Part shown: positions 3,903-61,976 of the stretch, in pieces
How the letters are laid out: each line of letters starts with the position of its first letter
How positions within the stretch are numbered: the stretch's first letter is position 1
From: Octopus vulgaris
Taxonomy: Eukaryota
NCBI GenBank assembly: GCA_951406725.2
Contig: OX597815.1
Location: forward strand, 152,582,001 to 152,646,000
Reading direction: 5' to 3'
Length of the DNA stretch: 64,000 nt
Position numbers and translations under genes: made by a program
Notes under the pieces: model-generated
Database searches by the model: none
What the model was told of the DNA's origin: nothing
Seen by the model: only the letters and a program-made list of their open reading frames with translations

Positions 3903-3938
<36 letters not shown>

Positions 3939-4221
3939 CAAGATAAGAAAATGGAGAAATACATCTAAATCAAATATCAATTACCAGATAATACTCAATC
4001 ACATACTTTATTAAACCACCACATAAGAGACTGTCGGGTTAAACATAAAAAAGCAGAACAAATCAGATATATATATATATATATACTATCTCCACCAAAT
4101 CAGCCCCAGTGCATTTTTTTAAGCCTACTTATTCTACCGGTCTCTTCTGTCAAACCACTATGTTACATGGATGTAAACAAACCAACACCAGTTGTCAAGC
4201 AGTATTGTGGACAAACATACT

Positions 4222-4253
<32 letters not shown>

Positions 4254-4558
4254 CACATATGATGAGCTTCTTTGTGTTTCTGTCAACCAAATCTACTCAC
4301 AAGGCTTTGGTTGACCCAAGGATTTGGTAGAAAGCACTTGCCCAAGGTGACACGCAGCAGGACAGAACCCTGAACCATGTAGTTGGGAAGCAAACATCTT
4401 ACCTCACATCCATGCCTAACACTGCTTAAACATTGCATTCATGGTACTTTTACTCAAAGGAAGATTTCAGCATGAACTGTAATCTAATGAAATCCTAATT
4501 AATCATTTGTGTGTATGTGTATCTATGTGTGTACACGAGTGTGTATTGGTGTGTGTGC

Positions 4559-4596
<38 letters not shown>

Positions 4597-13500: not shown

Positions 13501-13595
13501 AGTGGTTTTACTTATTATATTATATTTATCATTCTTTTTCTACTTTTTGAAAAAATAAATAAATTTTAAAAAAATTAAAAATTGAAAAAAGGAAT

Positions 13596-13634
<39 letters not shown>

Positions 13635-38100: not shown

Positions 38101-41100
38101 AGTTGGTAAAACTTTAGATTAATAATGATAGCTTTTTGTGTGAATGTGAATGCTGGTAAATTTTACTATAAACTATAACACTTGAAATTATGATTTTCAG
38201 ACCGACATATGCAGTCTAGAAATGAACATCCAGGTACAACACGTCAAAGAACATCACAGCCACATGGTGAGTATAAAACTGAAGTACCAAATTGATTTCT
38301 ATAAGTTTTCCTTTGAGCACTAGCATTGGTGAGTTTTTCTTGTGTCCCATAAAATTAGACAGTTCTTACTGCTCTTATGTTGTGTTTTTTCCTTTCAAGG
38401 TGACATGTTGAGAAGTGATGACAGAAGAATAATGAGGATGCAGGGAGTGAAAGTTGTGAGAAAATGAGGATAAGAATGGTGATTTGAAAGAGAGGTGGAA
38501 AATGACAAGACTGAGTGACTGTCAGTTGTGAGCCAACAGAGATGATTAACAACTTGGGAGTGTGATAATTAATGTCAAAATACTTATCAGAACATCATTT
38601 TCAGCATTCAAATGTAGGAGATTCAATAACAAATCTCAACTAGAAATGTTTTTAAGTGGTAAAATTTGTTAGAGATGATTTCCTTTGTTTACAAAATTGT
38701 TCTCCAGAATTTCTTCTTGATTTATCATCTCATGGAGATGTCAGATTTTTACAGTAGTCTGATGTTTGATATGAGAACATCTCTCACCAGAGTGTCTTCC
38801 TAGAATGTCTCAGGCTAGAATATGTCTATATATATATCTCCCTGAATGTTCAAAAACACAACTGTTTTCACTAACTGGACGTACAAACAAACATTTCTAG
38901 AAAAGTCAACTTCAATCTCTACAATAGTACCTTTATTTTCTTCTTGACTACCTGAAATATGCAAACATACTTTTTATTGCAATAACAGAAATAAACATGT
39001 GGTTAAGTGTGTATGTAAACAAATACGTAACCCGATTCATGATTGAAAGGAATTTATTTACAGGGTTTGATTTGTTATAGGTAGGAAACTCCTAAGAGTT
39101 GCTAGAAATACAGAGTACATATTAGGAATGAATATGTTTGTGTGTGTGCGTGTTTGATTCGAAACAGTTGTCTATCGGCACTTCGAACATTTCTCTCTGT
39201 CTCTGCGGTCTGCCAAAACCTGCCTCTCCTGTTTCACCGGGTTTTATAATATTTGTGGCAGTTAGAAAGACAGACATGTTGCAGCAGAGTTTGTACCTAA
39301 ATAGGTCAGCGCTTGTCCAGTTGAACTTCGCCTGTCAGAGGGAGATGATCAATCAATTTTTGACAGGACAAAGAAAACCTTTTTACGCGTCTGTTGATCA
39401 TCGTGGTTTGGACGACCGAGAATTCTTGGATTCGGTTTCGAATCTAGGCTTGGAGAAGGAAGTGTTAATTCTTACACTACCCCTCTTCTAGTGAGAAAGC
39501 CACAGAGATCGAGCGATATTGGAAATGTTATTTTTTGTGTGTATGCAGAAAAAATTTGCACATTGTAACAGACAAATGAATATATATATCAAAAACATGG
39601 GATATAAAAATATGAAGCAAAGGTTTACTTTACTGCTGATGTGTGCTATATGGTGGGCAATACATATATGTGCCCAGGCAGAAATATGTTGGCGTGTTGA
39701 AAGAGATGTGCGTCTATTGATTACTCGACCCACTAGAGGTCTAATAGAGGCAAGGCGTCTTTCAGTGGCGTAAAAGAATTGAGTGGTAGCACACATAAGA
39801 ATATGACTGTTGTAAATGTGTGTAAGCATACAGGTAGCAACATATTTTTACAAGAAGGCAAAACATTTTAAAGAGAAAGCAAAACATATGTACATACAAA
39901 AAATGAAAGAAATGTTCATCGAAAAAGTTCGTTTGTGAAATGTTCAGTAAATGTTCATACAGACAGTTTTTCGTTGATGTGGAACAACGTTTTTGTTTTC
40001 TTTTTTTTTTGTATACAAATGTTCTTTGATTTCTTTGGGTTTGTATGTGGGTGATGCAGTTATGTGAGTTATGTGTTGAAGTATGATGGATAGGTTAAGA
40101 GTTTGGAACTTACCCGAAAAACTTACATAAACCTTGCGGGCCATTGAACTGTTCTTCCCGATTTGGTTCGTCGGGGTTGTGCAGAATTTGTGGTGTTTGC
40201 TGGAATTGGTGAGTCCGTTCGAGGAAAGGAGGGAAATGAATGTAAGTCCTCCTCGATGAAGGCTTTTTTCAAACGATCAATCGATACCGTATTTCATTTA
40301 CCTCCAATATCAAGAACAAAGTACTTGGGTTTTCTTTTGATAACCTTGTAGGGCCCGGAATATGGTGGCTGAAGTTGAGATGGTATCCCATCATTCCTCA
40401 CGAAAACATGAGTCCAAGTGTTGATGTCTTTTGGGACATGTGAAACGACGTTCTGTTGTCTGGGGCCTAAAGGTGATAAATGCGACATGGATGTCCGTAA
40501 TCGGTGCACATATTGTGCTGGGTCAGGAAAGTCTTGTGAAGAAACAGGTTTGGTCATCTGCCCAGGTAAGGTGAGTGCTGTGCCATAGACGAGTTCAGCC
40601 AGAGTATATTCAAGTTCCTCCTTAACCGTGGATGGAATACCAAGGAGGATGAGAGGGAGGTGTTCCAGCCAGTGAGAACTGTCTGAAGCTGCTTTTATAG
40701 ATGCCTTGAGTTGGCGGTGAAAACGTTCGACCATGCCATTTGCTGCAGGGTGGTAAGCCGTAGTGCAGGTGTGTTTACACCCGAGGAGACGAGTCAGCTT
40801 GGTGAAGAGGTGGGAATCGAACTGACATCCTCTGTCAGTGGTGATTGTTGCGGGTGTGCCAAAATGCGAAACCCATTGTGATATCAGCGTTTTGATGACC
40901 GTTTCTGCTGATGTATCAGATAAGGGCCAGGCTTCGGGCCATCGTGAAAAACAATCTACGCAGGTGAGCAAATGTGTATAATTCTGCGAAGGTGGCAGAT
41001 GTCCCACGATATCAATGTGAACGTGTTGAAATCATGCATCAGGTTGCGAAACGGAACCGATTGGTGATTTTATGTGCCGGTAGATTTTCGCTTTTTGGCA

Positions 41101-44100: not shown

Positions 44101-47100
44101 GCGCCTGTTGATCGTCGTGGTTTGGACGACCGATAATTCTTGGATTCGGTTTCGAATCTAGGCTTGGAGAAGGAAGTGAAAATTCTTACAAACACGTCCA
44201 AGTCAGTTCTTATTCATCCAATGTCCAAGTCAGTTCTTATTCTGAGTTAACATCCACTTTCACTGCTTCAGGTACACACATGTCTCACTTAAATACTCTG
44301 GATTTTCTTTGAGGAGATACCCTTCTTAACACCAACCATTTTATAAAGGATCTTGGGTATGTTTTATTGTAACACAGGCAATAATAAGATTGTCATCATC
44401 ATCACCATTTATCGTCCATTGTCCATGCTGGCATGGGGTGGATAGTGTGACCAGAGCTGACAAGCGGAGGGGCTGTACCAGACTCTAATGTCCACAACTA
44501 GATTGAACGTTGCACTCAAAATTACACTATCTCTTCTCATTCACCAATTGCTTTCATGTGTGCACTGGGGCCATTTTCTCATAGTGCTAGCACTGGTCAG
44601 GTTGTCTAGCATCTCATAATATTATACAATTCTCATTGCACTTTCATGTGTTTTTACAATCATGAAGACATTTTGAGAAAGTGAGATGTTTAAGTGATAA
44701 AGGAAGAATTCTGAGGATGCAGGTACTGGAAGTTACAAGAAAATGAGGATAGCAAGAATGACTTGAAAGAGAGGTGGAGAATGACATGACCGAATGGATG
44801 AAGCTAAGATACAATTATTTGTGAGATGGTTAATGATTCACTAACATCTTGAGAATCCAATTATCAAAGACAGTGTTACTTGCTAGAACATCAATGCTGG
44901 CTTTGGTAAAGTATGAGGCTCAATCACAAAATCTCGACAAGACTTAGAATATCTACCTGTGAAATCATTTGGTCAGTGAATGTTTGTAAAGGGTAAAAGT
45001 TTAGATTAATAATTATAGCTTTTTGTATGAATGTGAATGTTGGTAAATTATACTATAATTTATAACACTTAAAATTATGTATTTAAGGCTTACAAAGGCA
45101 GGTTACAAATGAAGAGCCAGCATGTGAGATTGAAACTGAAGTACCAAATAGATTTCTATAAGTTTTCCCTTGAGCACTAGCATTGGTCAGTTTCTCTTGT
45201 GTCCCATAAAATTAGACTATTCTTACTGCTCTTATGATGTGTTTTTTCATTCAAGGTGACAAGTTGAGAAGTGATGACAGAGAAAGAATGAGGATGCAGG
45301 GAGTGAAAGTTGTGAGAAAATGATGATAAGAATGGTGATTTGAAAGAGAGGTGAAGAATGACAAGACTGAGTGACTGTCAGTTGTGAGCCAACAGAGATG
45401 ATTTATGATGTATTAACATCTTGGCAGTGTGATAATTAGAGTCAAAAGTACTTATAAGAACATCATTTTCAGCATTCTAATGTAGGAGATTCAATAACAA
45501 ATCTCAACTGGAAATGTTTTTAAGTGGTAAAAATTGTTAAAGATAATTTCCTTTGTTTACAAAATCATTGTCCAGAATTTCTTCTTGATTTATCATCTTA
45601 TGAAGATGTCAGATTTTTTACAGTAGTCTGATGTGTGATATGAGATATCATCTCTCACAGGAGTTTCTTCCCAGAATGTCTCAGGCTTACAAGGGCATTA
45701 TAGTATTATAATATGTATTATAGTCTATATATATATCTCACTGAATGATCAAAAACAAATGTTTTTTATTGCAAAAACACAACTGTTTTCACTAACTGGA
45801 CATACAAATAAACATCTCTATAAAAGTTAGCTTCAATCTCCACAATTTTACCTTTATTTTCTTCTTGACTACCCGAAATATGCAAACATACTTTTTATTG
45901 GAATACCAGAAATAAACACATGGAGAAAAAGAAGGAAATAAAAATAGATGATACTAATAATAGATTCTCTATCATCGAACACAACTCTATTCACAAATAC
46001 AGATCAAAGTCGGCCCTTCGTTGATTTTTTTCTCAAAGTCATGGTCACAGTTTGCATGTTCCAACAACAATATAGTAGACATTTGAAATCTTTTTGACCG
46101 ATCAGACTCCATCATACTTAAAAAAAAAGTAGTAGTTGCGTATCTTTTCCTTTTGAACGGCACTTTGTAATTAAAAAGTTTTAAACTTTGTATACTGGTA
46201 GAATGTGTTTGTAAAACATCTTTTCTCTTGGCTTTATTGAGAAAATTGTATAGGTTGTAAGATATTTTGTCTTTAATTTCAAGCATTTTGGCAATTTTAA
46301 CTAATCGCTGAGGCCCATTTAGGTAAATAACATTCTGTGCATAATGAATATGTCCCTTCTATAAGAAACAGATTGCATATATTTAGATTTGTGAAGAAAA
46401 CAAGATACCCTTCCCCAAACCCTAACCCTAACCCTAACTAACCCTAACTCTAATCCTAAATCTAAAATAGACTGAAATGCAATAGATCGATACTAGGTCC
46501 ATAATTATGGGTGACATTTTCATTTGAGATCGCTAGAAAAAAATCCCATTTACCATAGCGGTGTCGTATGAAATTGTCACCGATAATTATAATCCTAGTA
46601 TTGATCTATTGCATTTCAATCTATTTAGGGTTAGTCAGGGTTAGGGTTAGGGGTGGGGGAAGGGTATCTTATTTTCTTCACAAATGTAAATAAATCCAAT
46701 CTGTTTCGTAAAGGAGGGACATATTTATTATGTACAGAATGTTATTTACCTAAATGGACGTCAGCCATTGGTTAAAATTGCCAAAATGCTCGAAATTAAA
46801 GACAAAATATCTTACAACATATAGAATTTTCTCAATAAAGCCAAGAGAAGAATGAAGTTTTACAAACACATTCTACCAGTATACGAAGTTTAAAACATTT
46901 GAGTTACCTAGATATTATGTCACAAAGTGCCGTTCAAAAGGAAAAGATCCGTAGTTGCTGCTACAACTACTACCACTGCTACTATCAGAAATAACTACTA
47001 CTACTACTGCTACAATTAGAAACATAAGTTGACAGTGACATTGAGATGTTTTTCCCTGTGTCTGAATCATACCGGTGACACCAATGAAAAATCCCTTCCT

Positions 47101-50100
47101 TCTTTTCTTTTGTCGGGAGAAAAGAGAATTTACAGTAAAAACAAACCTTCAGCTCTCCCTCCAGCATAAAAATTACTTTAACAAAATATTTTAATAGGGC
47201 AAAACGTGCGAAAAATTTAAATTAAATTAATGAAAGACAAATACATGAGCCTTCTCGCACATAAACACATTTATTCACATATATACAAACACATAAGCAG
47301 ACGCAAATATTGAAGTACTAAATAGTACAACAAATAATATTTAACCATGTGGAGCATTTTACATGCATATCAATATTCTAAAGTTGGACCTACTATTCCT
47401 TATCCTAAAGCTACTAACAGATAAAGAAGAAAAGTTCCTGACTCATTTCACCGTCTACTTTCAATCTTTGATTGTGACTCTGCTCAACCCAAACTTTCTC
47501 AGATTTTGCCTGCTGTTATCTACACCTACAAAGATTGCAGCTGTTTTTATTCCTGCTTTTAACTATCAGAATTATCCTAGAACCCCTGGCAGCTATAGAA
47601 GATTGTTTTTGTCAACCATCTATCATGTCGTCCGAGCCTGGCTCAGCTACCTACAAATCGAAACTGAGATCTGCGAAAAGGGCTCGATCTGCTGATCCTA
47701 TTTTGGAAAATTTAGTTAATAAGGTGAACAGTGATATCAAGCTTTCACATGAAGACCCTGAAATCAAGATTTCTCATCAAGAAGATGGTCTTACTAACAA
47801 ATATCTCAATGAGCAGTTGCTGTTGCTTAAACAAGAGGTCGAACACCTTAAGTCTGTTGTTGCTGAATTACAGAATAAAAAAAACTGAATCCCATTCAAA
47901 GTCTCCTATTGATGAAGAGCCACTCTTGATTTCTTCCCTAAAGACTTCCAAACTGAAGAGATCAAAATCGAAGCGGTCAAAGAAGGCAAAAGTTCTGGCA
48001 GTCGTTTCCACTCATGATCCTATCTGTGCAGATTCTTCCTCATCTGCCTTTTTGGTCCCGGAGGTTCCCCAACCTGAATTGAGGAGCGTACACTCAAACC
48101 CACCTGAAGTCCATTGTTCTCCCCAAAAGAAGAAATGTAGTCAAAACTCCGGTGGGGCAGATTTAGATGCGAAACCTGCTCAAGATCAAATCTGTTTGGA
48201 TTCTCCCTCGTTTGTCCTTCTCATCAATGCCATTGCTCAAACAATTCTGCATGATCTTGATGTGAGTTCATCTGGGGAGTGGTGCTCCTCCAAAACAAAA
48301 AGAGGCAGTGCAGTTCCAAACCAGGCGGTAAAGTTATGACCACTAAACCCATTCCTTCGACCCCAAAGGCCTACATAAGTGTGATGGCTACGAAACTGCC
48401 CTTTCTGATTTATCAGATGAAGAATCGAATGCCGTAGTTCACAGTAGAGAACAGAACGACCATTTTGCCCACTCAAGATCAGCAATCATTTATGGTAAAG
48501 CTGAATCCACCAGTGATACAAGCATAAACCGCCTAAAAGATGACATAAATTTTGTTTCCGTTTTAGTTGGAGAATTGCACTTTGTCAACGAAAATGTCAT
48601 TATCCATAAGGTCGCTCGGCTAGGAAGATTCCAAGTGAACTCAACCTCAGACACAAGACCACGCCCAATAAGAGTAATCTTTTCTTCCGATCAGGAGGCT
48701 TCAACCTTTCTGAACAGAGTTCAGAAGCATGCCCGGGAGGATTCTATATGGGTTTTCGCAAGGAATACTCACTTTGAAGTGTGTACAGGGGCCATTTTCA
48801 CTTATAGTGCTAGCACTGGTCAGGTTGTCTTGCATCTCATATTATACAATTCTCATTGTTCTCTGATGTGTTTTTACAATCATGAAGACATGTTGAAAAG
48901 TGAGATGTTTAAGTGATAAGGGAAGAATAATGTGGATGCAGGTACTGAAAGTTACAAGAAAATGAGGATAAGAACAATGACATTAAAGAGAGGTGGAGAA
49001 TGACATGACCAAACGGATGAAGCTAAGATACAATTATTTGTGAGATGGTTAATGATTCACTAACATCTTGAGAATCCAATAATCAAAGACAGTGTTACTT
49101 AATGGAACATCAATGCTGGCTTTGGTAAAGTATGAGGCTCAATCACAAAATCTCAACAAGCGTTAGAAAGTCTACCTGTGAAATCATTTGTTCAGTGTTG
49201 TTGTGAATATTTGTAAAAGGTAAAAGTTTTGATTAATAATTAAAGGTTTTTGTGTGAATGTGAATGTTGGTAAATTTTACTATAAATTATAACACTTGAA
49301 ATTATGAATTTCAGACATTAATCTGCAGAATACACTTGCACAGCCACATGGTGAGTATAAAACTGAAGTATCAAATTGATTTCTATAAGTTTTCGCCTGA
49401 GGACTGGCATTGGTCAGTTTCTCTTGTGTCCCATAAAATTAGACACTTCTTACTGCTCTAAATGTGTTCTTTCATTCAAGGTGACAAGTTGAGAAGTGAT
49501 GACAGAGAAAGAATGAGGATGCAGGGAGTGAAAGTTGTGAGATAATGAGGATAAGAATGGTGATTTGAAAGAGAGGAGGAGAATGACAAAACTGAGTGAC
49601 TGTCAGTTGTGAGCCAACAGAGATGATTATTGATGTATTAACATCTAGGGAAACTGATAATTAAAGTCAAAAGTACTTATAAGAACATCATTTTCAGCTT
49701 TCTAATGTAGGAAATTCAATAACAAATCTCAACTGAAAATGTTTCAGTTGTTGACGATAATTGTTAAAGATAATTTCCTTTGTTTACAAAATCGTTCTCC
49801 AGAAGTCCTTCTTGATTCAACATCTTATGAAGTTGTCAGATTTGTACAGTAGTCTGATGTTTGATATGAGATATCCTCTCTTGCAGGAGTATCTTCCCAA
49901 AATGTCTCAGGCTAGAATATGTATTATAATCTATATATATATATATATATATATATATGAGTATATATATATATATATATATATTTGTAACTTAGATTGC
50001 ATGTATCTGTGCGTGTAAATGTGTGTCTGTCTGTATGTGTGCTTCACTAAAACTCAAGAACTAACCAACTGATTTCATTCAAATTTCACACCTGCCTTAG

Positions 50101-53100
50101 TTATGGTCCATGTTGTCATGGGCCAAACAAAGTTTCAACGTCTTGCGTAATGTGATCCTGGAGCAATCTCTTATCTCTTACGCTATTTCGGTATTACTTG
50201 TCAGAAGGGAAACAATAAAATCTCTATTGTAATGTGAACTAATACATTCACTGTGATATATTTATGTATGTATCTGTAAGTATATATATGCATGTATATG
50301 TATGTTTACATATACATGCACACATATCAGATCAGATTGGAGCCTGGTGCAGCCTTCTGGCTTGCTAGACCTCAGCATGGAAAGCAGATATTAAAATACG
50401 ATGATGATAATGATGATGATCATGATCATGGAGCTTCTACTTTATAGATCTGTGCTGAGACAATCATATTCACTGTAATGAAAGCCACATATTTTTTAGT
50501 CAGATTATATACAATTTATATAGATATCTAGTATTGCAATGTCAGACAGTGTTTTTTGTATTGCATATACAACCTGTTAACATGATAATGAATCAGATAT
50601 TATTCATTAATTGATTTACATTTGTATGTCTGAAATTTAACCTTATTTTGTCATAGCATCATCTTGTATCCTCACCAAACAGATTTAAACTTTATTACCA
50701 TCTGTGTAAATAATTCAACTGTTTTTCTTGGGCATGCAACCACTCCACTACAAAATGGTATTATTGACTTCTGTAGTCCAATAAGGTCCAGATGTTATTG
50801 TGTCCTAAAACAAAATGTGAAACATATCTGTATATTTATGGTACTATTTTGGTATATTTTATAAAGCATTATTGTGACATTTTGTAATTAGTTGGTCTTA
50901 ATTCACATCAATGACAAATGTAGTACAACAGTGGTAATGTGAAAGGGATTACATATTCCTTGTGATGTTGTCCTTATATTAGCTATAACATCACATACAG
51001 TTTCTGTCAGTCACACCCTGCTACACAGGTGTAAGTTCCAAGTCCTCAAGTTAGATACAGGCTGCTTGATGCAAAATAATAAATGATAGTGTCTTTACCA
51101 TTCACCATCAGCTTCCATGCTCCCATCAATTAGATGGGTCATCAATGTCCCAGTCAGTTCTTATTCTGACTTAACATCCACTTTCACTGCTTGAGGTACA
51201 CACGCGTCTCACTTAAATACTCTGGATTTTTTTTGAGGAGATACCCTTCTTAACACCAACCATTTTATAAAGGATCTTGGGTATGTTTTATTGTAACACA
51301 GGCAATAATAAGACTGTCATCATCATCACCATTTATCGTCCATTGTCCATGCTGGCATGGGGTGGACAGTGTGACCAGAGCTGACAAGCGGAGGGGCTGT
51401 ACCAGACTCTAATGTCCACAACTAGATTGAACATTGCACTCAAAATTACGCTGTCTCCTCTCATTCATCAATCACTTTCATGTGTGTACTGGGGCCATTT
51501 TCTCATAGTGCTAGCACTGGTCAGTTTGTCTAGCATCTCATAATATTATACAATTCTCATTGCACTTTCATGTGTTTTTACAATCATGAAGACATTTTGA
51601 GAAAGTGAGATGTTTAAGTGATAAAGGAAGAATTCTGAGGATGCAGGTACTGAAAGTTACAAGAAAATGAGGATAGCAAGAATGACTTGAAAGAGAGGTG
51701 GAGAATGACATGACCGAATGGATGAAGCTAAGATACAATTATTTGTGAGATGGTTAATGATTCACTAACATCTTGAGAATCCAATTATCAAAGACAGTGT
51801 TACATGCTAGAACATCAATGTTGGCTTTGGTAATCACAAAATCTCAACAAGACTTAGAATGTCTACCTGTGAAATCATTTGGTCAGTGAATGTTTGTAAA
51901 AGGTAAAAGTTTAGATTAATAATTATAGCTTTTTGTATGAATGTGAATGTTGGTAAATTATACTATAATTTATAACACTTGAAATTATGTATTTCAGGCT
52001 TACAAAGGCAGGATACATATGAAGAGCCAATAAGTGAGTATAAAACTGAAGTACCAAATTGATTTCTATAAGTTTTCCCTTGAGCACTAGCATTGGTCAG
52101 TTTCTCTTGTGTCCCATAAAATTAGACTATTCTTACTGCTCTTATGATGTGTTTTTTCATTCTAGGTGACAAGTTGAGAAGTGATGACAGAGAAAGAATG
52201 AGGATGCAGGGAATGCAAGTTGTGAGAAAATGATAAGAATGGTGATTTGAAAGAAAGGTGGAGAATGACAAGACTGAGTGACAATCAGCTGTGAGCCAAC
52301 AGAGATGATTTATGACGTATTAACATCTTGGGAGTGTGATAATTAAAGTCAAAAGTACTTATAAGAACATCATTTTCAGCATTCTAATGTAGGAAATTCA
52401 ATAACAAATCTCAACTGGAAATTTTTTTAAGTGTAAAAATTGTTAAAGATAATTTCCTTTGTTTAATAAATCATTGTCCAGAATTTCTTCTTGATTTATC
52501 ATCTTATGGAGATGTCAGATTTTTACAGTAGTCTGATGTGTGATATGAGATATCATCTCTCACAGAAGTTTCTTCCCAGAATGTCTCAGGCTTACAAGGG
52601 CATTATAGTATTATAATATGTATTATAGTCTATATATATATATCTCACTGAATGTTCAAAAACAAATGTTTTTTATTGCAAAAACACAACTGTTTTCACT
52701 AACTGGACATACAAATAAACATCTCTATAAAAGTTAGCTTCAATCTCCACAATTTTACCTTTATTTTCTTCTTGACTACCCGAAATATGCAAACATACTT
52801 TTTATTGGAATACCAGAAATAAACACACGGAGAAAAAGAAGGAAATAAAAATAGATGATACTAATAATAGATTCTCTATCATCGAACACAACTCTATTCA
52901 CAAATACAGATCAAAGTCGGCCCTTCGTTGATTTTTTTCTCAAAGTCATGGTCACTGTTTGCATGTTCCAACAACAATATAGTAGACATTTGAACTCTTT
53001 TTGACCGATCAGACTCCATCATACTTTAAAAAAAAAAGTAGTAGTTGCGTATCTTTTCCTTTTGAACGGCACTTTGTAATTAAAAAGTTTTAAACTTTGT

Positions 53101-56100
53101 ATACTGGTAGAATGTGTTTGTAAAACATCTTTTTCTCTTGGCTTTATTGAGAAAATTGTATAGGTTGTAAGATATTTTGTCTTTAATTTCAAGCATTTTG
53201 GCAATTTTAACTAATCGCTGAGGCCCATTTAGGTAAATAACATTTTGTGCATAATGAATATGTCCCTCCTATAAGAAACAGATTGCTTATATTTACATTT
53301 GTGAAGAAAACAAGATACACTTCCCCAACCCCTATCCCTAACACTAACTAACTCTAACTCTAATCCTAAATCTAAATTAGACTGAAATGCAATAGATCGA
53401 TACTAGGTCCATAATTATGGGTGACATTTTCATTTGACACCGCTAGAAAAAAATCCCATTTTCCATAGCGGTGTCATATGAAATTGTCACCCATAATTAT
53501 AACCCTAGTATTGATCTATTGCATTTCAATCTATTTAGGGTTAGAGTTAGGGTTGGTCAGGGTTAGGGTTATGGGTGGGGGAAGGGTATCTTATTTTCTT
53601 CACAAATGTAAATAAATCCAATCTGTTTCTTAAAGGAGGGACATATTCATTATGTACAGAATGTTATTTACCTAAATGGACGTCAGCCATTGGTTAAAGT
53701 TGCCAAAATGCTCGAAATTAAAGACGAAATATCTTACAACATATAGAATTTTCTCAATAAAAACAAGAGAAAAATGATGTTTTACAAACACATTCTACCA
53801 GTATACGAAGTTTAAAACTTTTTAGTTACCTAGATATTATGTCACAAAGTGCCGTTCAAAAGGAAGAGATCCGTAGTAGCTGCTACAACTACTACCACTG
53901 CTACTGTCAGGAATAACTACTACTACTACTGCTACAATTAGAAACATAAGTTGACAGTGACATCGAGATGTTTTTCCCTGTGTCTCAATCATAACGGTGA
54001 CACCAATGAAAAATCCCTTCTTTTTTTCTTTTTTTATGGGAGAAAAGAGAATTTACAGTAAAAACAAACCTTCAGCTCTCCCTCCAGCGTAAAAATTACT
54101 TTAACAAAATATTTTAATAGGGAAAAACGTGCGAAAAAAATTAAATTAAATTAACGAAAGACAAATACATGAGCCTTCTCGCACATAAACACATTTATTC
54201 ACATATATACAAACACATAAGCAGACGCAAATATTGAAGTAATAAATAGTAAAACAAATAATATTTAACCACATGGAGCATTTTACATGCATATCAATAT
54301 TCTAAAGTTGGACCTACTATTCCTTATCCTAAAGCTACTAACAGATAAAGAAGAAAAGTTCCTGACTCATTTCACCGTCTACTTTCAATCTTTGACTGTG
54401 ATTCTGCTCAACCCAAACTTTCTCAGATTTTGCCTGCTGTTATCTACACCTACAAAGATTGCAGCTGTTTTTGTTCCTGCTTTTAACTATCAGAATTATC
54501 CTAGAACCCCTGGCAGCTATAGAAGATTGTTTTTGTCAAACATCTATCATGTCGTCCGAGCCTGGCTTAGCTACCTACAAATCGAAACTGAGATCTGCGA
54601 AAAGGGCTCGATCTGCTGATCCTATTTTGGAAAATTTAGTTAAAAATGTGATCAGTGATATCAAGCTTTCACATGAAGACCCTGAAATCAAGATTTCTTT
54701 TCAAGAAGATGGTCTTACTAACAAATATCTCAACGAGCAGTTGCTGTTGCTTAAACAAGAGGTCGAACACCTTAAGGCTTTTGTTGCTGAATTACAGAAT
54801 AAACAAGCTGAATCCCATTCAAAGTCTCCTATTGATGAAGAGCCACTCTTGATTTCTTCCCTAAAGACTTCCAAACTGAAGAGATCAAAATCGAAGCGGT
54901 CAAAGAAGGCAAAAGTTCTGGCAGTCGTTTCCACTCATGATCCTATCTGTGCAGATTCTTCCTCATCTGCCTTTTTGGTCCCAGAGGTTCCCCAACCTGA
55001 ATTGAGGAGCGTACACTCAAACCCACCTGAAGACCATTGTTCTCCCCAAAAGAAGAAATGTAGTCAAAACTCCGGTGGGGCAGATTTAGATGCGAAACCT
55101 GCTCAAGATCAAATCTGTTTGGATTCTCCCTCGTTTGTCCTTCTCATCAATGCCATTGCTCAACCAATTCTGCATGATCTTGATGTGAGTTCATCTGGGG
55201 AGTGGTGCTCCTCCAAAACAAAAAGAGGCAGTGCAGTTCCAAACCAGGCGGTAAAGTTATGACCACTAAACACATTCTGTTCGACTCCAATGGCCCACAT
55301 AAGTGTGATGGCTATGAAACAGCCCTTTCTGATTTATCAGATGAAGAATCGAATGCCGTAGTTCACAGTAGAGAACAGAACGACCATTTTGCCCACTCAA
55401 GATCAGCAATCATTTATGGTAAAGCTGAATCCACCAGTGATACAAGCATAAACCGCCTAAAAGATGACATAAATTTTGTTTCCGTTTTAGTTGGAGAATT
55501 GCACTTTGTCAACGAAAATGTCATTATCCATAAGGTCGCTCGGCTAGGAAGATTCCAAGTGAACTCAACCTCAGACACAAGACCACGCCCAATAAGAGTA
55601 ATCTTTTCTTCCGATCAGGAGGCTTCAACCTTTCTGAACAGAGTTCAGAAGCATTCCTGGGAGGACCTATATATGGGTTTTCGCAAGAAATACTCACTTT
55701 GAAGTGTGTACTTAGATTGCATGTATCTGTGCGTGTAAATGTGTGTCTGTCTGTATGTGTGCATCACTAAAACTCAAGAACTAACCAACTGATTTCATTC
55801 AAATTTCACACCTGCCTTAGTTATGGTCCATGTGGTGTCATGGGCCAAACAAAGTTTCAACGTCTTGCGTAATGTGATCCTGGAGCAATCTCTTATCTCT
55901 TACGCTATTTCGGTATTACTTGTCAGAAGGGAAACAATAAAATCTCTATTGTAATGTGAACTAATACATTCACTGTGATATATTTATGTATGTATCTGTA
56001 AGTATATATATGCATGTATATGTATGTTTACATATACATGCACACATATCAGATCAGATTGGAGCCTGGTGCAGCCTTCTGGCTTGCTAGACCTCAGCAT

Positions 56101-59100
56101 GGAAAGCAGATATTAAAATACGATGATGATAATGATGATGATCATGATCATGGAGCTTCTACTTTATAGATCTGTGCTGAGACAATCATATTCACTGTAA
56201 TGAAAGCCACATATTTTTTAGTCAGATTATATACAATTTATATAGATATCTAGTATTGCAATGTCAGACAGTGTTTTTTGTATTGCATATACAACCTGTT
56301 AACATGATAATGAATCAGATATTATTCATTAATTGATTTACATTTGTATGTCTGAAATTTAACCTTATTTTGTCATAGCATCATCTTGTATCCTCACCAA
56401 ACAGATTTAAACTTTATTACCATCTGTGTAAATAATTCAACTGTTTTTCTTGGGCATGCAACCACTCCACTACAAAATGGTATTATTGACTTCTGTAGTC
56501 CAATAAGGTCCAGATGTTATTGTGTCCTAAAACAAAATGTGAAACATATCTGTATATTTATGGTACTATTTTGGTATATTTTATAAAGCATTATTGTGAC
56601 ATTTTGTAATTAGTTGGTCTTAATTCACATCAATGACAAATGTAGTACAACAGTGGTAATGTGAAAGGGATTACATATTCCTTGTGATGTCTGCGAAAAG
56701 GGCTCGATCTGCTGATCCTATTTTGGAAAGTTCAGTTAAAAAGGTGATCAGTGATATCAAGCTTTCACATGAAGACCCTGAAATCAAGATTTCTAATCAA
56801 GAAGATGGTCTTACTAACAAATATCTCAACGAGCAGTTGCTGTTGCTTAAACAAGAGGTCGAACACCTTAAGTCTGTTGTTGCTGAATTACAGAATAAAC
56901 AAACTGAATCCCATTCAAAGTCTCCTATTGATGCAGAGCCACCCTTGATTTCTTCCCTAAAGGCTTCCAAACTGAAGAGATCAAAATCGAAGCAGTCAAA
57001 GAAGGCAATAGAACTGGCAGTTGTTTCCACTCATGATCCTATCTGTGCAGATTCTTCCTCATCTGCCTTTTTGGTCCCGGAGGTTCCCCAACCTGAATTG
57101 AGGAGCGTACACTCAAACCCACCTGAAGTCCATTGTTCTCCCCAAAAGAAGAAACGTAGTCAAAACTCCGGTGGGGCAGATTTAGCTGCGAAACCTGCTC
57201 AAGATCAGATCTGTTTGGATTCTCCCTCATTTGTCCTTCTCATCAATGTCATTGCTCAACCAATTCTGCATGATCTTGATGTGAGTTCATCTGGGGAGTG
57301 GTGCTCCTCCAAAACAAAGAAGGGGCAGTGCAGTTCCAAACCAGGTGGTAAAGTTATGACCACTAAACCCATTTCGATCATCCCCAATGGACTACATAAG
57401 TGTGATGGCAACGAAACCGCCCTTTCTGATTTATCAGATGAAGAATCGAATGCCGTAGTTCACAGTAGAGAACAGAACGACCATTTTGCCCACTCAAGAT
57501 CAGCAATCATTTATGGTAAAGCTGAATCGACCGGTGATACAAGCATAAACCGCCTAAAAGATGACATAAATTTTGTTTCCGTTTTAGTTGGAGAATTGCA
57601 CTTTGTCAACGAAAATGTCATTATCCATAAGGTCGCTCGGCTAGGAAGATTCCAAGTGAACTCAACCTCAGACACTAGACCATGCCCAATAAGAGTAATC
57701 TTTTCTTCAGATCAGGAGGCTTCAACCTTTCTGAACAGAGTTCAGAAGCATGCCCGGGAGGATTCTATATGGGTTTTCGCAAGGAATACTCACTTTGAAG
57801 TGTGTACTGGGGCCATTTTCTCATGGTGCTAGCACTGGTCAGGTTGTCTTGCATCTCATATTATACAATTGTCATTGTTCTCTGATGTGTTTTTACAATC
57901 ATGAAGACATGTTGAGAAAGTGATAAGTTTAAGTGATAACAGAAGAATAATGTAGATGCAGGTACTGAAAGTTACAAGTAAATGAGAATAAGAACAATGG
58001 CATTAAAGAGAGGTGGAGAATGACATGACCAAACGGATGAAGCTAAGATACAATTATTTGTGAGATGGTTAATGATTCACTAACATCTTGAGAATCCAAT
58101 AATCAAAGACAGTGTTACTTAATGGAACATCAATGCTGGCTTTGGTAAAGTATGAGGCTCAATCACAAAATCTCAACAAGCGTTAGAAAGTCTACCTGTG
58201 AAATCATTTGGTCAGTGTTGCTGTGAATGTTCGTAAAAGGTAAAAGTTTTGATTAATAATTAAAGGTTTTTGTGTGAATGTGAATGTTGGTAAATTTTAC
58301 TATAAATTATAACACTTGAAATTATGAATTTCAGACATTAATCTGCAGAATACACTTGCACAGCCACATGGTGAGTATAAAACTGAAGTACCAAATTGAT
58401 TTCTATAAGTTTTCGCCTGAGGACTAGCATTGGTCAGTTTCTCTTGTGTCCCATAAAATTATACTGTTCTTACTGCTCTTAATGTGTTCTTTCATTCAAA
58501 GTGACATGTTGAGAAGTGATGACAGAGAAAGAATGAGGATGCAGGGAGTGAAAGTTGTGAGAAAATGAGGATAAGAATGGTGATTTGAAAGAGATGTGGA
58601 GAATGACAAAACTGAGTGACTGTCAGTTGTGAGCCAACAGAGATGATTATTGATGTATTAACATCTAGGGAAACTGATAATTAACCCTTTAGTGTTCACA
58701 TTATTCTGCCAAAATTAATGCTTTTTCATCCTCTTTGTTTTGAACTAATCATGCATTATCTTGTAGTTATGAGATTTTGATGAGGTAGCTGTTAATTTTT
58801 AAAATGATATTGTAGGGTTGGTGTGAGAGACCAGATCTGGCCAGTTTGAACATAAAACAGGCAGAATACTTTTGGCTGGATATGGCCGGTTTAAATGCTA
58901 AAGGGTTAAAGTAAAAAGTAGTAGTTGCGTATCTTTTCCTTTTGAACGGCACTTTGTAATTAAAAAGTTTTAAACTTTGTATACTGGTAGAATGTGTTTG
59001 TAAAACATCTTTTTCTCTTGGCTTTATTGAGAAAATTGTATAGGTTGTAAGATATTTTGTCTTTAATTTCAAGCATTTTGGCAATTTTAACTAATCGCTG

Positions 59101-61976
59101 AGGCCCATTTAGGTAAATAACATTTTGTGCATAATGAATATGTCCCTCCTATAAGAAACAGATTGCTTATATTTACATTTGTGAAGAAAACAAGATACCC
59201 TTCCCCAAACCCTAACCCTAACCCTAACTAACCCTAACTCTAATCCTAAATCTAAAATAGACTGAAATGCAATAGATCGATACTAGGTCCATAATTATGG
59301 GTGACATTTTCATTTGACACCGCTAGAAAAAAATCCCATTTCCATAGCGGTGTCATATGAAATTGTCACCCATAATTATAACCCTAGTATTGATCTATTG
59401 CATTTCAATCTATTTAGGGTTAGAGTTAGGGTTGGTCAGGGTTAGGGTTATGGGTGGGGGAAGGGTATCTTATTTTCTTCACAAATGTAAATAAATCCAA
59501 TCTGTTTCTTAAAGGAGGGACATATTCATTATGTACAGAATGTTATTTACCTAAATGGACGTCAGCCATTGGTTAAAGTTGCCAAAATGCTCGAAATTAA
59601 AGACGAAATATCTTACAACATATAGAATTTTCTCAATAAAAACAAGAGAAAAATGATGTTTTACAAACACTTTCTACCAGTATACGAAGTTGAAAACTTT
59701 TTAGTTACCTAGATATTATGTCACAAAGTGCCGTTCAAAAGGAAGAGATCCGTAGTAGCTGCTACAACTACTACCACTGCTACTATCAGAAATAACTACT
59801 ACTACTACTGCTACAATTAGAAACATAAGTTGACAGTGACATCGAGATGTTTTTCTCTGTGTCTGAATCATACCGGTGACACCAATGAAAAATCCCTTTC
59901 TTTTTTTCTTTTGTTGCGAAAAAAGAGAATTTACAGTAAAAACAAACCTTCAGCTCTCCCTCCAGCATAAAAATTACTTTAACAAAATATTTTAATAGGG
60001 CAAAACGTGCGAAAAAATTAAATTAAATTAACGAAAGACAAATACATGAGCCTTCTCGCACATAAACACATTTATTCACATATATACAAACACATAAGCA
60101 GACGCAAATATTGAAGTACTAAATAGTAAAACAAATATTTAACCATGTAGAGCATTTTGCATGCATATTAATATTCTAAAGTTGGACCTACTATTCCTTA
60201 TCCTAAAGCTACTAACAGATAAAGAAGAAAAGTTTTTGATTCATTTCACCGTCTATAGAAGATTGGTTTTGTCAACCATCTATCATGTCGTCCGAGCCTG
60301 GCTCAGCTACCTACAAATCGAAACTGAGATCTGCGAAAAGGGCTCGATCTGCTGATCCTATTTTGGAAAATTCAGTTAAAAAGGCGATCAGCTTTCACAT
60401 GAAGACCCTGAAATCAAGATTTCTCATCAAGAAGATGGTCTTACTAACAAATATCTCGACGAGCAGTTGCTGTTGCTTAAACAAGAGGTCGAACACCTTA
60501 AGTCTGTTGTTGCTGAATTACAGAATAAACAAACTGAATCCCATTCAAAGTCTCCTATTGATGCAGAACCACCCTTGATTTCTTCCCTAAAGACTTCCAA
60601 ACTGAAGAGATCAAAATCGAAGCGGTCAAAGAAGGCAAAAGATCTGGCAGTCGTTTCCACTCATGATCCTATCTGTGCGGATTCTTCCTCATCTGCCTTT
60701 TTGGTCCCGGAGGTTCCCCAACCTGAATTGAGGAGCGTACACACAAACCCACCTGAAGTCCATTGTTCTCCCCAAAAGAAGAAACGTAGTCAATACTCCG
60801 GTGGGGCAGATTTAGATGTGAAACCTGCTCAAGATCAAATCTGTTTGGATTCTCCCTCATTTGTCCTTCTCATCAATGCCATTGCTCAACCAATTCTGCA
60901 TGATCTTGATGTGAGTTCATCTGGGGAGTGGTGCTCCTCTAAAACAAAGAAGAGGCAGTGCAGTTCCAAACCAGGTGGTAAAGTTATGACCACTAAACCC
61001 CTTTCGATCAACCCCAACGGCCTACATAAGTGTGATGGCAACGAAACCGCCCTTTCTAATTTATCAGATGAAGAATCGAATGCCGTAGTTCACAGTAGAG
61101 AACAGAACGACCATTTTGCCCACTCAAGATCAGCAATCATTTATGGTAACGCTGAATCCACCGGTGATACAAGCATAAACCGCCTAAAAGATGACATAAA
61201 TTTTGTTTCCGTTTTAGTTGGAGAATTGCACTTTCTCAACGAAAATATCATTATCCGTAAGGTCGCTCGGCTAGGAAGATTCCAAGTGAACTCAACCTCA
61301 GACACTAGACCACGCCCAATAAGAGTAATCTTTTCTTCCGATCAGGAGGCTTCCACCTTTCTGAACAGTTCAGAAGCATGCCTGGGAGGACCTCTATATG
61401 GGTTTTCGCAAGGAATACTCACTTTGAAGTGTGTACTGGGGCCATTTTCTCATAGTGCTAGCACTGGTCAGGTTGTCTTGCATCTCATATTATACAATTC
61501 TCATTGTTCTCTGATGTGTTTTTACAATCATGAAGACATGTTGAAAAGTGAGATGTTTAAGTGATAACAGAAGAATTATGTGGATGCAGGTACTGAAAGT
61601 TACAAGAAAATGAGGATAAGAACAATGACATTAAAGAGAGGTGGAGAATGACATGACCGAATGGATGAAGCTAAGATACAATTATCTGTGTGATGGTTAA
61701 TCCAATAATCAAAGACAGTGTTACTTAATGGAACATCAATGCTGGCTTTGGTAAAGTATGAGGCTCAATCACAAAATCTCAACAACACTTAGAATGTGTA
61801 CTTGTGAAATCATTTGGTCAGTGTTGCTGTGGATGTTTGTAAAAGGTAAAAGTTTATATTAATAATTATAGCTCTTTGTGTGAATGTGAATGTTGGTAAA
61901 TTATATTATAATTTATAACACTTGAAATTATGTATTTCAGGCTTACAAAGGCAGGTTACAAATGAAGAGCCAGCAT
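2790..61976 (+). CDS. Adhesion GPCR gene (HormR-GAIN/GPS-7TM, ADGRG-like), multi-exon, 5'-incomplete; tail extended by duplicated microexons; stop codon not located
   Basis: 13 core exons (2790-38266) join in frame via GT-AG sites with matching phases. They encode the HormR motif (C..WP.T..G....PC....ATRYC...W..P..SQC), GAIN, GPS (CAYWD...WSTNGC...CSCNHLTSF) and 7 hydrophobic helices. Five homologous 36-nt exons follow in frame. Confidence 0.9.
4110..4420 (+). mobile_element. SINE fragment with internal (CA)n
   Basis: Homologous to copies at 19690-20020 (opposite strand) and 33100-33460 (same strand): caaatccactcacaaggctttggtcggcc core. Confidence 0.6.
5853..6022 (+). CDS. aGPCR exon: HormR C-half (SYST...[26 protein letters not shown]...)
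   Basis: Acceptor tttttcag, donor gtaagt; phase 2/1; G.W..P.MSQC motif. Confidence 0.88.
6750..8270 (-). mobile_element. Degenerate Penelope-like retroelement RT
   Basis: [12 protein letters not shown] (cf. IKPADKG..VV), G.VIGT..GQNYINL.VGYVE (cf. G.AMG..AP.YA.LFM..E) and YIND (cf. YIDD); many frameshifts. Confidence 0.7.
9605..9836 (+). CDS. aGPCR exon: GAIN subdomain A helices ([10 protein letters not shown]...EQASRSVTR)
   Basis: Acceptor ccattgcag, donor gtaata; phase 1/2; matches ORF 9523-9840. Confidence 0.88.
9853..9990. repeat. Compound trinucleotide microsatellite (TTG/TAG/GAA/GAC/CAA)
   Basis: Direct reading. Confidence 0.9.
10167..10338 (+). CDS. aGPCR exon: GAIN ([12 protein letters not shown]...PETKAKTL)
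   Basis: Acceptor ttcctatag, donor gtacaa; phase 2/0. Confidence 0.85.
10407..11642 (-). mobile_element. Mariner-type DNA transposon, defective, with long (~165 bp) TIRs
   Basis: gagggtgaactgaaaagttc ... aaaccttttagccaccctc; internal taaactgacatctgactgtt mirrored; minus-strand [25 protein letters not shown]. Confidence 0.85.
11816..13750. mobile_element. Foldback element with ~430-bp inverted arms and very AT-rich core (probably decayed Penelope-like)
   Basis: 11816-12245 is the reverse complement of 13302-13750 (e.g. taggcaactcaaacagtgatagacataaacc / ggtttatgtctatcactgtttgagttgccta). Confidence 0.8.
14982..15200 (+). mobile_element. tRNA-related SINE (aggcaggGagctggcagaaacgttagc family)
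   Basis: Homologous to tandem copies at 18601-19000 and to a reverse fragment at 27095-27218. Confidence 0.7.
15280..15423 (+). CDS. aGPCR exon: GAIN (IYNSS...ISLPRSLF...[14 protein letters not shown])
   Basis: Acceptor ctttgtcag, donor gtatgg; phase 0/0; I.LP.SLF and F.....KL[FY] GAIN motifs. Confidence 0.88.
15636..15930. repeat. Degenerate (TG)n/(TGCA) microsatellite
   Basis: Direct reading; source of spurious C/V/H/T-rich ORFs. Confidence 0.9.
17000..18050 (+). mobile_element. Tc1-family transposase remnant
   Basis: MPKATKL...ILAL...[11 protein letters not shown] start; FQEDNAPIH and [15 protein letters not shown] (DD34E) in ORF 17574-17876. Confidence 0.85.
18319..18447 (+). CDS. aGPCR exon: GAIN (VIQT...[24 protein letters not shown])
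   Basis: Acceptor ctttacag, donor gtaacg; phase 0/0; S.IISA...I.NL.EPV motif. Confidence 0.9.
18601..19000 (+). mobile_element. Two tandem SINE copies
   Basis: aaggcag..agctggcagaaacattagca starts at 18601 and 18802. Confidence 0.7.
19690..20025 (-). mobile_element. SINE copy
   Basis: Reverse-orientation homologue of 33100-33460. Confidence 0.7.
20228..20365 (+). CDS. aGPCR exon: GPS motif (NQQCAYWDE...WSTNGC...[13 protein letters not shown])
   Basis: Canonical GPS with H-L/T cleavage triad; acceptor ttttcag; in-frame donor gttggt (see finding on the competing donor). Confidence 0.9.
21746..22604 (-). mobile_element. Mariner transposon, internally deleted
   Basis: TIRs tcaggttga.taaaa / ttttattcaacctga with TA flanks; [33 protein letters not shown]. 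Confidence 0.9.
22811..22908 (+). CDS. aGPCR exon: TM1 ([33 protein letters not shown])
   Basis: Acceptor ctgtttcag, donor gtaagc; phase 0/2; LS.I.C.IS TM1 motif. Confidence 0.87.
23632..23825 (+). mobile_element. 3' end of an RLE-type non-LTR retrotransposon
   Basis: [11 protein letters not shown]...L.KLGF...LI motif; same family as 34090-34860. Confidence 0.55.
24000..24291 (+). mobile_element. CR1/L2-like LINE ORF2 3' fragment
   Basis: T.GH.YK.........[19 protein letters not shown]......FK motif. Confidence 0.75.
24292..24862. mobile_element. Head-to-head palindromic pair of a tRNA-headed repeat with hammerhead-like motif; 13-bp flanking direct repeat
   Basis: Centre gcccatgggc (24581-24590); A/B-box-like tRNA heads; actacacctgata at 24279-24291 and 24863-24875. 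Confidence 0.75.
24885..26320 (-). mobile_element. Probable LINE 5' end/ORF1 remnant
   Basis: GC-richer block with broken coding-like minus-strand ORFs (25666-26001, 24885-25226); no exon signals; family not certain. Confidence 0.4.
27263..27386 (+). CDS. aGPCR exon: TM2 ([28 protein letters not shown]...AACK)
   Basis: Acceptor ttattcag, donor gtaagt; phase 2/0. Confidence 0.88.
27513..27734. mobile_element. piggyBac-type MITE
   Basis: TTAA-CCC...GGG-TTAA termini. Confidence 0.75.
28850..29015 (+). mobile_element. APE-endonuclease N-terminal fragment of a LINE (L1/Tx1-like)
   Basis: INACGL.......LL..L..LGLDV.AISET (cf. N..GL...DI..LQET). Confidence 0.5.
29608..29746 (+). CDS. aGPCR exon: TM3-TM4 start ([17 protein letters not shown]...ILAWG)
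   Basis: LLHY...WM and WG motifs; acceptor ttcaag, donor gtaggt; phase 0/1. Confidence 0.88.
30221..32205 (+). mobile_element. hAT (Charlie/ZBED-like) transposon, degenerate
   Basis: Termini cagtggttccaaa / tttggcaatcactg; [27 protein letters not shown] and PTSY.VEQ.FS remnants; TSD not recognisable. Confidence 0.75.
32784..32847 (+). CDS. aGPCR exon: TM4-ECL2 ([22 protein letters not shown])
   Basis: Acceptor ttgtcag, donor gtaagt; phase 1/2; completes WGLP. Confidence 0.85.
33100..33460 (+). mobile_element. SINE copy
   Basis: tttacttgtttcagtcatttgactg...caaatccactcacaaggctttggtcggcc...gggactgaacc. Confidence 0.75.
33784..33990. repeat. (ATGT)n/(ATGC)n compound tetranucleotide microsatellite
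   Basis: Direct reading. Confidence 0.95.
34090..34860 (-). mobile_element. RLE-type (R2/R4/NeSL-like) non-LTR retrotransposon 3' fragment
   Basis: AIQEQ, CRLC...[10 protein letters not shown] (CCHC), HDIV...IY, WWN.P...[16 protein letters not shown]. Confidence 0.8.
35150..35290. repeat. (ATGT)n/(ACGT)n microsatellite
   Basis: Direct reading. Confidence 0.9.
36908..37062. repeat. (GGAT)n microsatellite
   Basis: Direct reading. Confidence 0.9.
37247..37575 (+). CDS. aGPCR exon: ECL2-TM5-TM6-TM7 (CWLS...FLAPV...LSWLFAF...[13 protein letters not shown]...)
   Basis: CWL motif and N.LQ..FIF TM7 motif; acceptor ttgtag, donor gtaagt; phase 2/1. Confidence 0.9.
38201..38266 (+). CDS. aGPCR cytoplasmic-tail exon, 66 nt ([23 protein letters not shown])
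   Basis: Acceptor gattttcag, donor gtgagt; phase 1/1, in frame with the TM7 exon; flanks homologous to the downstream cassettes. Confidence 0.75.
38998..44190 (-). mobile_element. Ty3/Gypsy LTR retrotransposon, non-autonomous (gag mostly deleted; PR-RT-RH-IN frameshifted)
   Basis: LTRs 38998-39476 and 43692-44190 (TG...CA); 4-bp TSD AACA; PPT 39477-39488; PBS tggttacccc; [10 protein letters not shown] protease, DYRSLN/FSKIDL RT, DAS RNaseH, integrase TDRG.QF/YHP..NG.VERFH and GPY. Confidence 0.95.
45088..45123 (+). CDS. Tail microexon type A ([12 protein letters not shown]), weaker splice sites
   Basis: 36 nt at the position homologous to exon 38201; acceptor atttaag, donor gtgaga. Confidence 0.55.
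46140..46950. mobile_element. Palindromic foldback MITE with internal (CCCTAA)n/(TTAGGG)n; 8-bp TSD gtagttgc
   Basis: ~400-bp inverted arms g.atcttttcc...ggaaaagatcc; gtagttgc at 46132-46139 and 46951-46958. Confidence 0.85.
47625..48780 (+). pseudogene. LINE ORF1-like fragment (coiled coil + RRM-like), copy 1, frameshifted
   Basis: [16 protein letters not shown] coil; AIIYG..ES...D...V ... V.RLG......PRPIRV.F (CR1/L2-type ORF1 pattern); no ORF2 follows. Confidence 0.65.
49315..49350 (+). CDS. Tail microexon type B ([12 protein letters not shown])
   Basis: 36 nt; aatttcag / gtgagt; phase 1/1. Confidence 0.65.
51998..52033 (+). CDS. Tail microexon type A' ([12 protein letters not shown])
   Basis: 36 nt; atttcag / gtgagt; phase 1/1. 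Confidence 0.65.
   Translation, partial: AYKGRIHMKSQ
53049..53872. mobile_element. Foldback MITE copy 2
   Basis: Same arms and same flanks. Confidence 0.85.
54549..55702 (+). pseudogene. LINE ORF1-like fragment copy 2 (one frameshift near 55220)
   Basis: ORFs 54459-55262 and 55202-55702. Confidence 0.65.
56690..57832 (+). pseudogene. LINE ORF1-like fragment copy 3 (open for ~380 codons, 5'-truncated)
   Basis: ORF 56684-57832. Confidence 0.65.
58335..58370 (+). CDS. Tail microexon type B, second copy (identical to 49315-49350)
   Basis: 36 nt; aatttcag / gtgagt. Confidence 0.65.
58685..58905. mobile_element. piggyBac-type MITE, unique to this array unit
   Basis: TTAA-ccctttag...ctaaaggg-TTAA; absent from the paralogous site near 49661. 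Confidence 0.85.
58929..59751. mobile_element. Foldback MITE copy 3
   Basis: Same arms and same flanks. Confidence 0.85.
60285..61420 (+). pseudogene. LINE ORF1-like fragment copy 4 (small deletions)
   Basis: ORFs 60285-60578 and 60467-61564. Confidence 0.65.
61941..61976 (+). CDS. Tail microexon type A, second copy (exon identical to 45088-45123)
   Basis: 36 nt; atttcag / gtgagt. Confidence 0.65.

Follow-up and report, generated by a model that had tools for sequence, protein, structure and literature searches.

What does an adhesion G protein-coupled receptor (GPCR) gain from a run of very small symmetric exons, multiplied together with their introns behind its last transmembrane helix, and how is the resulting tail varied? 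The question is raised by a 64,000-nucleotide stretch of the 2.8-Gb Octopus vulgaris genome (C2:152582001-152646000, hereafter the window). The reading that we favour, with slightly more confidence than doubt, is that serial exon duplication, in-frame shortening and diversification would have produced a mostly included repeat tail, whose motifs replace a decayed Death module.

Gene model and identity of the receptor

The ectodomain and TM1-TM4 exons of the array gene within the window were located by tblastn and checked for splice sites and frame (Table 1). When the part of the array beyond the window is included, the whole-gene model comprises 30 exons, every one of them bounded by AG and GT, which join into a single open reading frame of 1104 aa; seven of these exons lie upstream of the window. 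The tail following TM7 is 196 residues long in this model, and the cassette exons contribute 354 of the 3315 coding bases.

Table 1. Positions of the features discussed in the text, numbered from the first base of the window; numbering is continued past its end.
Feature	Position	Strand	Remarks
Seven ectodomain exons	2790-2904, 5853-6022, 9605-9836, 10167-10338, 15280-15423, 18319-18447, 20228-20365	+	tblastn with P0002 and P0056; AG/GT and frame
Ectodomain content: hormone-receptor-like region, GAIN, GPS with His-Leu/Thr motif	2790..20365	+	Pfam GPS on P0056
Four TM1-TM4 exons	22811-22908, 27263-27386, 29608-29746, 32784-32847	+	tblastn; AG/GT and frame
TM5-TM7 exon	37247-37575	+	phase 1; last base T (G in paralogues)
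66-nt cassette exon	38201-38266	+	long form, presumably ancestral
Broken LTR retrotransposon	39001-44190	-	intron between 66-nt and first 36-nt exon; terminal repeats 94% alike
Higher-order duplication, multiplied cassettes	44214-48786 / 51139-55711	+	96% identity, up to 4.6 kb
36-nt exon, type A	45088-45123	+	acceptor AAG, donor GTGAGA
36-nt exon, type B	49315-49350	+	A-to-B junction creates Tyr codon
36-nt exon, type A'	51998-52033	+	internal Tyr; 5 differences from A, all amino-acid changing
36-nt exon, type B	58335-58370	+	identical to 49315; flanks differ at 9/240 sites
36-nt exon, type A	61941-61976	+	identical to 45088; flanks differ at 20/240 sites
36-nt exons beyond window	66126, 68822, 78457
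72-nt Death helix-1 exon beyond window	78277-78348
Terminal exon beyond window	from 84024		truncated Death remnant

The original prediction had named one 66-nt and five 36-nt exons, all of phase 1/1, arranged as A-B-A'-B-A within a common duplicated cassette. All six were found where it had placed them, with AG before and GT after; order and peptides agree with the claim, each exon is open in the phase-1 frame, and the six sit in one cassette of about 0.8-1.3 kb with 82-87% identity to the first copy. The list of real exons was nevertheless incomplete. Following the array past base 64000, as had been proposed, leads through three more 36-nt exons and a 72-nt Death exon to the terminal exon, with the 1104-aa frame open throughout. 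The array thus totals one 66-nt and eight 36-nt exons (nine cassette exons), accompanied by Death-derived exons, and phase 1 is the one frame that stays open in all nine. By the size limit for micro-exons (51 nt or less, listing of PMC4317164, with canonical splice sites), the eight 36-nt exons are micro-exons and the 66-nt exon is not.

The assignment to the adhesion GPCRs was borne out by Pfam. A GPS was detected on P0056, a protein matching the window exons (E 4e-13), and the His-Leu/Thr cleavage motif sits in exon 20228-20365, ahead of TM1. The secretin-type seven-transmembrane region (7tm_2) was detected on the relative P0002 (E 1e-23), which is identical to the array gene at 186 of 244 7TM residues; the TM7 exon alone scores under the Pfam cut-off. 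The ectodomain carries a signal peptide and extends for 663 residues ahead of the GPS, 572 of 598 residues being identical to P0004, and an O. vulgaris protein entry matches the upstream exons nearly letter for letter. As judged from sequence, an octopus-specific adhesion GPCR is supported. Ritschard et al. 2019 (PMC6408891), in the available text, describe an octopus-specific adhesion GPCR expansion under positive selection, in which 5 of 22 sequences have leucine-rich repeats (LRRs) and one has a Death domain. The array gene resembles their group 3 in having GPS and 7TM and clustered paralogues, with LRRs in some members, Death in one O. bimaculoides sequence and signs of positive selection; what is added here to the available text of that paper, whose supplements may name the relative, is the tail microexon array together with the variation in its copy number and the decay of Death.

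Three close paralogues of the TM7 exon (A, B and C) lie within 530 kb. Paralogue A, the sister gene, is full length and has LRR exons, whereas B and C are 5'-truncated pieces arranged head to head; near 151.9 Mb there are two more fragments. The B/C pair starts head to head inside the ectodomain (C2:152374070-152378213), an inverted partial duplication, and a similar layout is seen near 151.93 Mb. No LRR exons were found in the array gene between its signal exon and its LRR C-cap exon (C2:152535405-152549657, upstream of the window), which join in frame. In the sister gene LRR exons number about 18; this is a second symmetric-exon array, contracted in the array gene.

The TM7 donor is the same site in the array gene and in the three paralogues, and its phase 1 is kept despite exon lengths of 329, 332, 344 and 344 nt. 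Reading through this donor (37576-37592) gives a short Cys-Lys-Cys-Asn end and then a stop; a similar end occurs in the paralogues.

Duplication and divergence of the cassette

An exact acceptor-exon-donor pattern matched 24 times in the 2.8-Gb genome, in every case at C2:152.04-152.66 Mb, and the reversed control gave no match. Together with the one frame open in all nine exons and the shared TM7 donor, this indicates that the exons are not chance occurrences. The cassette DNA likewise gave 40 of 40 scored matches in the same interval (40 of 52 candidates were scored). A dispersed transposon-derived repeat was rejected, as neither the 24 pattern matches nor the 40 scored ones include a copy at an unrelated locus. 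An assembly artefact was rejected for the array gene because its copies differ by 3-18%; the 13 units of the sister gene are 97.6-99.8% alike (12 compared), and their count is therefore less certain.

Transposon remnants and another repeated element are also present in the window. The broken LTR element contains minus-strand pieces of protease, reverse transcriptase, RNase H and integrase. An element of about 830 nt, with an imperfect inverted repeat and a short CCCTAA run, is carried in the duplicated units (46139-46951, 53048-53873, 58928-59752 and 62980-63800), and a fragment of a DDE transposase (Pfam DDE_3) lies in an ectodomain intron at 17565-17876.

In alignment, removal of 30 nt between two CAGCCA direct repeats turns the 66-nt form into the 36-nt form, and removal of 9 nt gives the 57-nt exons. 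A tree of the downstream flanks grouped the copies mostly by exon class, the base of the tree being unresolved. In-frame length changes numbered 6 of 9 (P 0.04), which is weak evidence taken alone. In the reading that we favour, one phase-1 linker exon between TM7 and Death would have been duplicated repeatedly along with its flanking intron, unequal crossing-over being the presumed engine of cassette multiplication; the duplicated exon would then have been shortened in frame from 66 to 36 nt and diversified. Symmetry is also simply a survival condition for a duplicated exon.

Type A and type B units differ at 0.47 of sites within the exon, compared with 0.01-0.15 in 21 adjoining 36-nt flank bins and 0.23 in the outermost bin, and this peak is bounded exactly by the AG and GT splice sites. 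Most cross-gene exon pairs display the same excess of exon over flank divergence. On a minimum spanning tree of the 22 distinct in-frame exons, none of 139 substitutions created a stop (rough P 0.0006), and the single changes comprised 63 amino-acid-changing vs 10 silent ones (rough P 0.006); these counts are rough rather than phylogenetic, and many of the rows come from fragments B and C. The divergence of the exons over their flanks, the lack of stops and the excess of amino-acid changes support the view that the cassette units behave as coding exons under diversifying pressure, presumably selection for new tail sequence. Two observations temper this. In the 66-nt class silent sites also diverge more than the flanks (0.2-0.3 vs less than 0.1 in many pairs), and divergence of the TM7 exon likewise outpaces that of its own intron, so that flank homogenisation could account for part of the excess and family-wide selection may contribute.

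These data bear on two other explanations. According to one, the cassette is an intronic repeat with splice-like ends that is never included, the mRNA either reading through after TM7 or splicing straight to a terminal exon. The stop that lies five codons past the TM7 donor in all four paralogues would suit such a transcript. We nevertheless regard this explanation as very improbable: the divergence peak is delimited exactly by AG/GT, frame and open reading are preserved in 42 of 46 cassette exons of the cluster (9 of 9 in the array gene), the cassette is found genome-wide only in this cluster, and two independent annotations join such exons. One is RefSeq XP_029651540.2 of O. sinensis, a predicted model that itself lacks the TM1-TM2 exons, in which the 12-aa unit of the sister gene is joined in 11 copies (the sister gene has 13 here), together with three other cassette exons and a truncated Death exon; the other is the annotation model CAI9718374.1, in which TM7 is followed directly by paralogue B's first 66-nt exon. 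The public model of the array gene itself, CAI9718378.1, ends before TM7 and has no tail, and protein searches found no transcript-derived tail for this gene. In a word screen of sequencing runs, 13 of 24 guessed to be RNA hold 0.87 of the TM7-exon words, which counts neither way on splicing.

According to the other explanation, the exons are spliced but serve as an inert or length-setting spacer, expanded by recombination under relaxed constraint, and the motifs are incidental. Both full-length genes have a truncated Death domain, and the array gene yielded no LRR exons and has several gene fragments around it, all of which would agree with relaxation; moreover, the exon peptides are not conserved among paralogues, and the sister gene's 12-aa unit contains no tyrosine. 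Losing both its LRR exons and its Death domain may also mark a gene in decay, a point against the reading that we favour. Relaxed exons, however, should follow their flanks and gain stops, yet these exons diverge about two to five times faster than the flanks with zero stops, and identical exon copies persist amid drifting flanks. We therefore consider a mere spacer improbable.

Position of the array and fate of the Death domain

The best protein match to the array gene, an O. bimaculoides relative (XP_014788728.1 / XP_052821851.1), is organised as LRR - GPS - 7TM - Gln/Ser/Thr repeat linker - Death domain, and its Death domain (P0002) scores 28.8 bits in Pfam against a cut-off of 22.6. Since the repeat linker of this relative lies between the 7TM and Death regions, the array occupies the position of the linker. 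Local alignments of the O. bimaculoides linker with the exon peptides were low-scoring and of low complexity, had no control, and are suggestive only. The earlier reading had missed that the array separates TM7 from a Death domain, which the O. bimaculoides relative keeps intact and which has decayed in the array gene.

A complete C-terminal Death domain is absent from the array gene, where it is truncated by 29 residues with the loss of two tryptophans. It is also split, as the last 36-nt exon lies between two Death exons: the helix-1 exon is still open with its tryptophan gone, and in the terminal exon there are deletions and a premature stop, both also found in the sister gene. The Death domain of fragment C can be aligned end to end. 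Pfam scans of single Death exons gave no match, whether the copy was intact or decayed.

Compared with the donor flank of the cassette, that of the Death helix-1 exon scores 31-32, vs 14-22.5 for 18 other donors of the gene. With 300-nt flanks, comparison of this exon with the cassette gave scores of 60 and 65, which are not significant against block-shuffle maxima of 76 and 72. Because of the donor-flank resemblance, and because the helix-1 exon occurs in triplicate in fragments C and D, a partial common ancestry of this exon and the microexon cassette is likely, the donor side alone standing out. The triplication consists of 1.1-kb units, the third copy lacking a donor (C2:152479630-152482228 and C2:151941650-151944106).

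A Death tail as a family-wide trait was rejected: only 4 of 56 TM7 exons are followed within 120 kb by a Death match on the same strand, and 7 by one on the opposite strand, in a count that used 123 of the 150 listed Death matches, those dropped being mostly stop-containing arrays. Overall, Death-domain matches number at least 150, on C29, C31, C30, C26, C10 and C1:216.93-216.96 Mb, and most are a separate exon of the terminal type; at C1:216.93-216.96 Mb there are tandem unsplit Death copies with stops, and the whole amounts to a large Death-domain expansion.

The paralogues use the same cassette with other exons, 18 in A (13 of them copies of one 36-nt unit), 7 in B and 12 in C. Exon sets and copy numbers thus differ among paralogues, in support of the earlier proposal of diversification by copy number. 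In some paralogue exons an upstream acceptor is used and acidic tyrosine-bearing peptides are coded; in fragment C (C2:152440787-152476392) the upstream acceptor gives acidic exons of 90-129 nt, some with Y-x-x-L and Y-x-x-V cores. Three of the four frame-breaking copies belong to 5'-truncated gene fragments. The fourth, a 58-nt copy, is in the full-length sister gene; the single base by which it differs lies in an A run and could stem from misassembly.

Tail motifs, splicing and comparable receptors

The predicted tail contains four L-x-R-x-x-T motifs, which by motif consensus are predicted Ser/Thr kinase sites, as well as two E-E-P-A-Y-x-N-L and one Y-E-E-P, whose Y-x-N-L and Y-E-E-P are likewise predicted SH2 docking sites. 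Three Y-x-x-L/I cores are present, none of them with the required upstream residues; by eye, the tail lacks a canonical ITIM or hemITAM (I/L/V-x-Y-x-x-I/L/V, or three acidic residues-x-Y-x-x-L) as given in the available text of PMC12582321. The tyrosine of both Y-x-N-L motifs and the tyrosine after TM7 are coded across exon junctions, where the last base of the upstream exon is T and that of the paralogues is G. Joins of A to B or of TM7 to B give Tyr; other joins give Cys, Asp, Gly, Asn or Ser.

One possible explanation for this arrangement is a combinatorial splicing device, as originally proposed, in which cells would include or skip symmetric exons; the choice of neighbour would then toggle the tyrosine motifs, since a Tyr codon arises only where T meets AC at a junction (T|AC). 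The earlier reading had noted that the choice of symmetric exons is neutral to frame. No junction of any exon pair yields a stop, and the partner determines whether a Tyr is formed. The cassette acceptors are pyrimidine-poor (0.50-0.55 vs at least 0.60 in 18 other acceptors), which could favour skipping, but the acceptor of the Death helix-1 exon is equally weak (0.50). The frame-breaking 58-nt exon of the sister gene would have to be left out of the mRNA, and exons of its type are missing from the O. sinensis model; the possible origin of this copy as an assembly error weakens the point. Precedents are offered by the seven skippable tail exons of shrimp Dscam (PMC6851185) and by motif swaps in Botryllus FcoR (PMC12582321), as far as the accessible text of these papers goes. 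On the other side, since several copies are identical, skipping would mostly alter length, and the RefSeq proteins of both relatives bear no isoform label, with P0004 alone in its cluster, which is a weak sign. We hold this device to be possible, if rather doubtful.

The reading that we favour would instead have most copies included in the mRNA and spliced in series, giving a 196-residue repeat tail in which putative kinase and tyrosine docking motifs stand where the Death domain has decayed. Given the predicted kinase and SH2 motifs, copy number would set the valency of the tail; diversity would reside mainly in DNA (copy number and paralogue), splicing being a possible extra layer. The array lends itself to a direct test of how the valency of the tail tunes adhesion GPCR output. 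A bolder version is that this is a repeatable route, in which a cassette akin to the first Death exon amplifies and overwrites the Death module, combinatorial splicing makes phosphotyrosine motifs at the junctions, and a second subfamily has converged on the same solution with unrelated exons. We judge it unlikely; if true, a 7TM receptor would carry an intracellular code that can be programmed.

The array itself is a real, well-supported structure, in which known kinds of organisation (exon-duplication tails and MEG-like arrays) are now found on an adhesion GPCR, in addition to the replacement of Death. The original contrast with aGPCR variation of the ectodomain type was overstated, as tail splicing that alters signalling has been published for LPHN2 (PMC12236479, available text). 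There too an adhesion GPCR tail is varied by exon use, which sets signalling bias; LPHN2, however, has distinct alternative exons and demonstrated splicing, whereas the octopus gene has tandem copies of one small exon, described here from genomic anatomy. Schistosoma MEGs (PMC4350168, in the text at hand) share with it series of very small symmetric exons that expanded recently and evolve rapidly, but there most of the protein, which is secreted or anchored, is encoded by microexons, and alternative splicing has been demonstrated. With 354 of 3315 coding bases in cassette exons, on the inner side of a 7TM receptor, the octopus gene does not consist mostly of small symmetric exons and falls outside the MEG definition. 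Shrimp Dscam and Botryllus FcoR (PMC6851185 and PMC12582321) are similar in being invertebrate receptors with tail tyrosine motifs altered by exon use; they differ in being single-pass Ig receptors, their tail exons are not described in the accessible text as tandem copies of one cassette, and FcoR has the canonical ITIM or hemITAM that the octopus tail lacks. PMC11703226, which in its available part concerns intra-exon repeats, was set aside as no match. A search by title and start of abstract, with most subscription papers outside its scope, found no description of a tandem microexon array in a GPCR tail.

The locus would represent a receptor tail caught in the middle of being rebuilt, with a folded Death module lost and a tandem array of putative kinase and tyrosine motifs growing, its contents differing from paralogue to paralogue. 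It is unusual for a GPCR to diversify fast on its inner side, and this may point to an immune or recognition role, or to intracellular conflict. Annotation of the octopus-specific adhesion GPCRs is poor: in the public model of the array gene, TM7 and the entire tail are missing.

A second octopus adhesion GPCR, at about 2.88 Mb on C31 (C31:2845900-2885147; CAJ1099247.1), has duplicated phase-1 exons of 42 and 60 nt after TM7, each with tyrosine motifs. The one donor flank tested is unrelated to the cassette; tails of small exons with tyrosine motifs are thus seen at least twice among octopus adhesion GPCRs. Tail exons of the C31 type are also present at C31:9125500-9134300, and one such exon has matches on C5 and C28.
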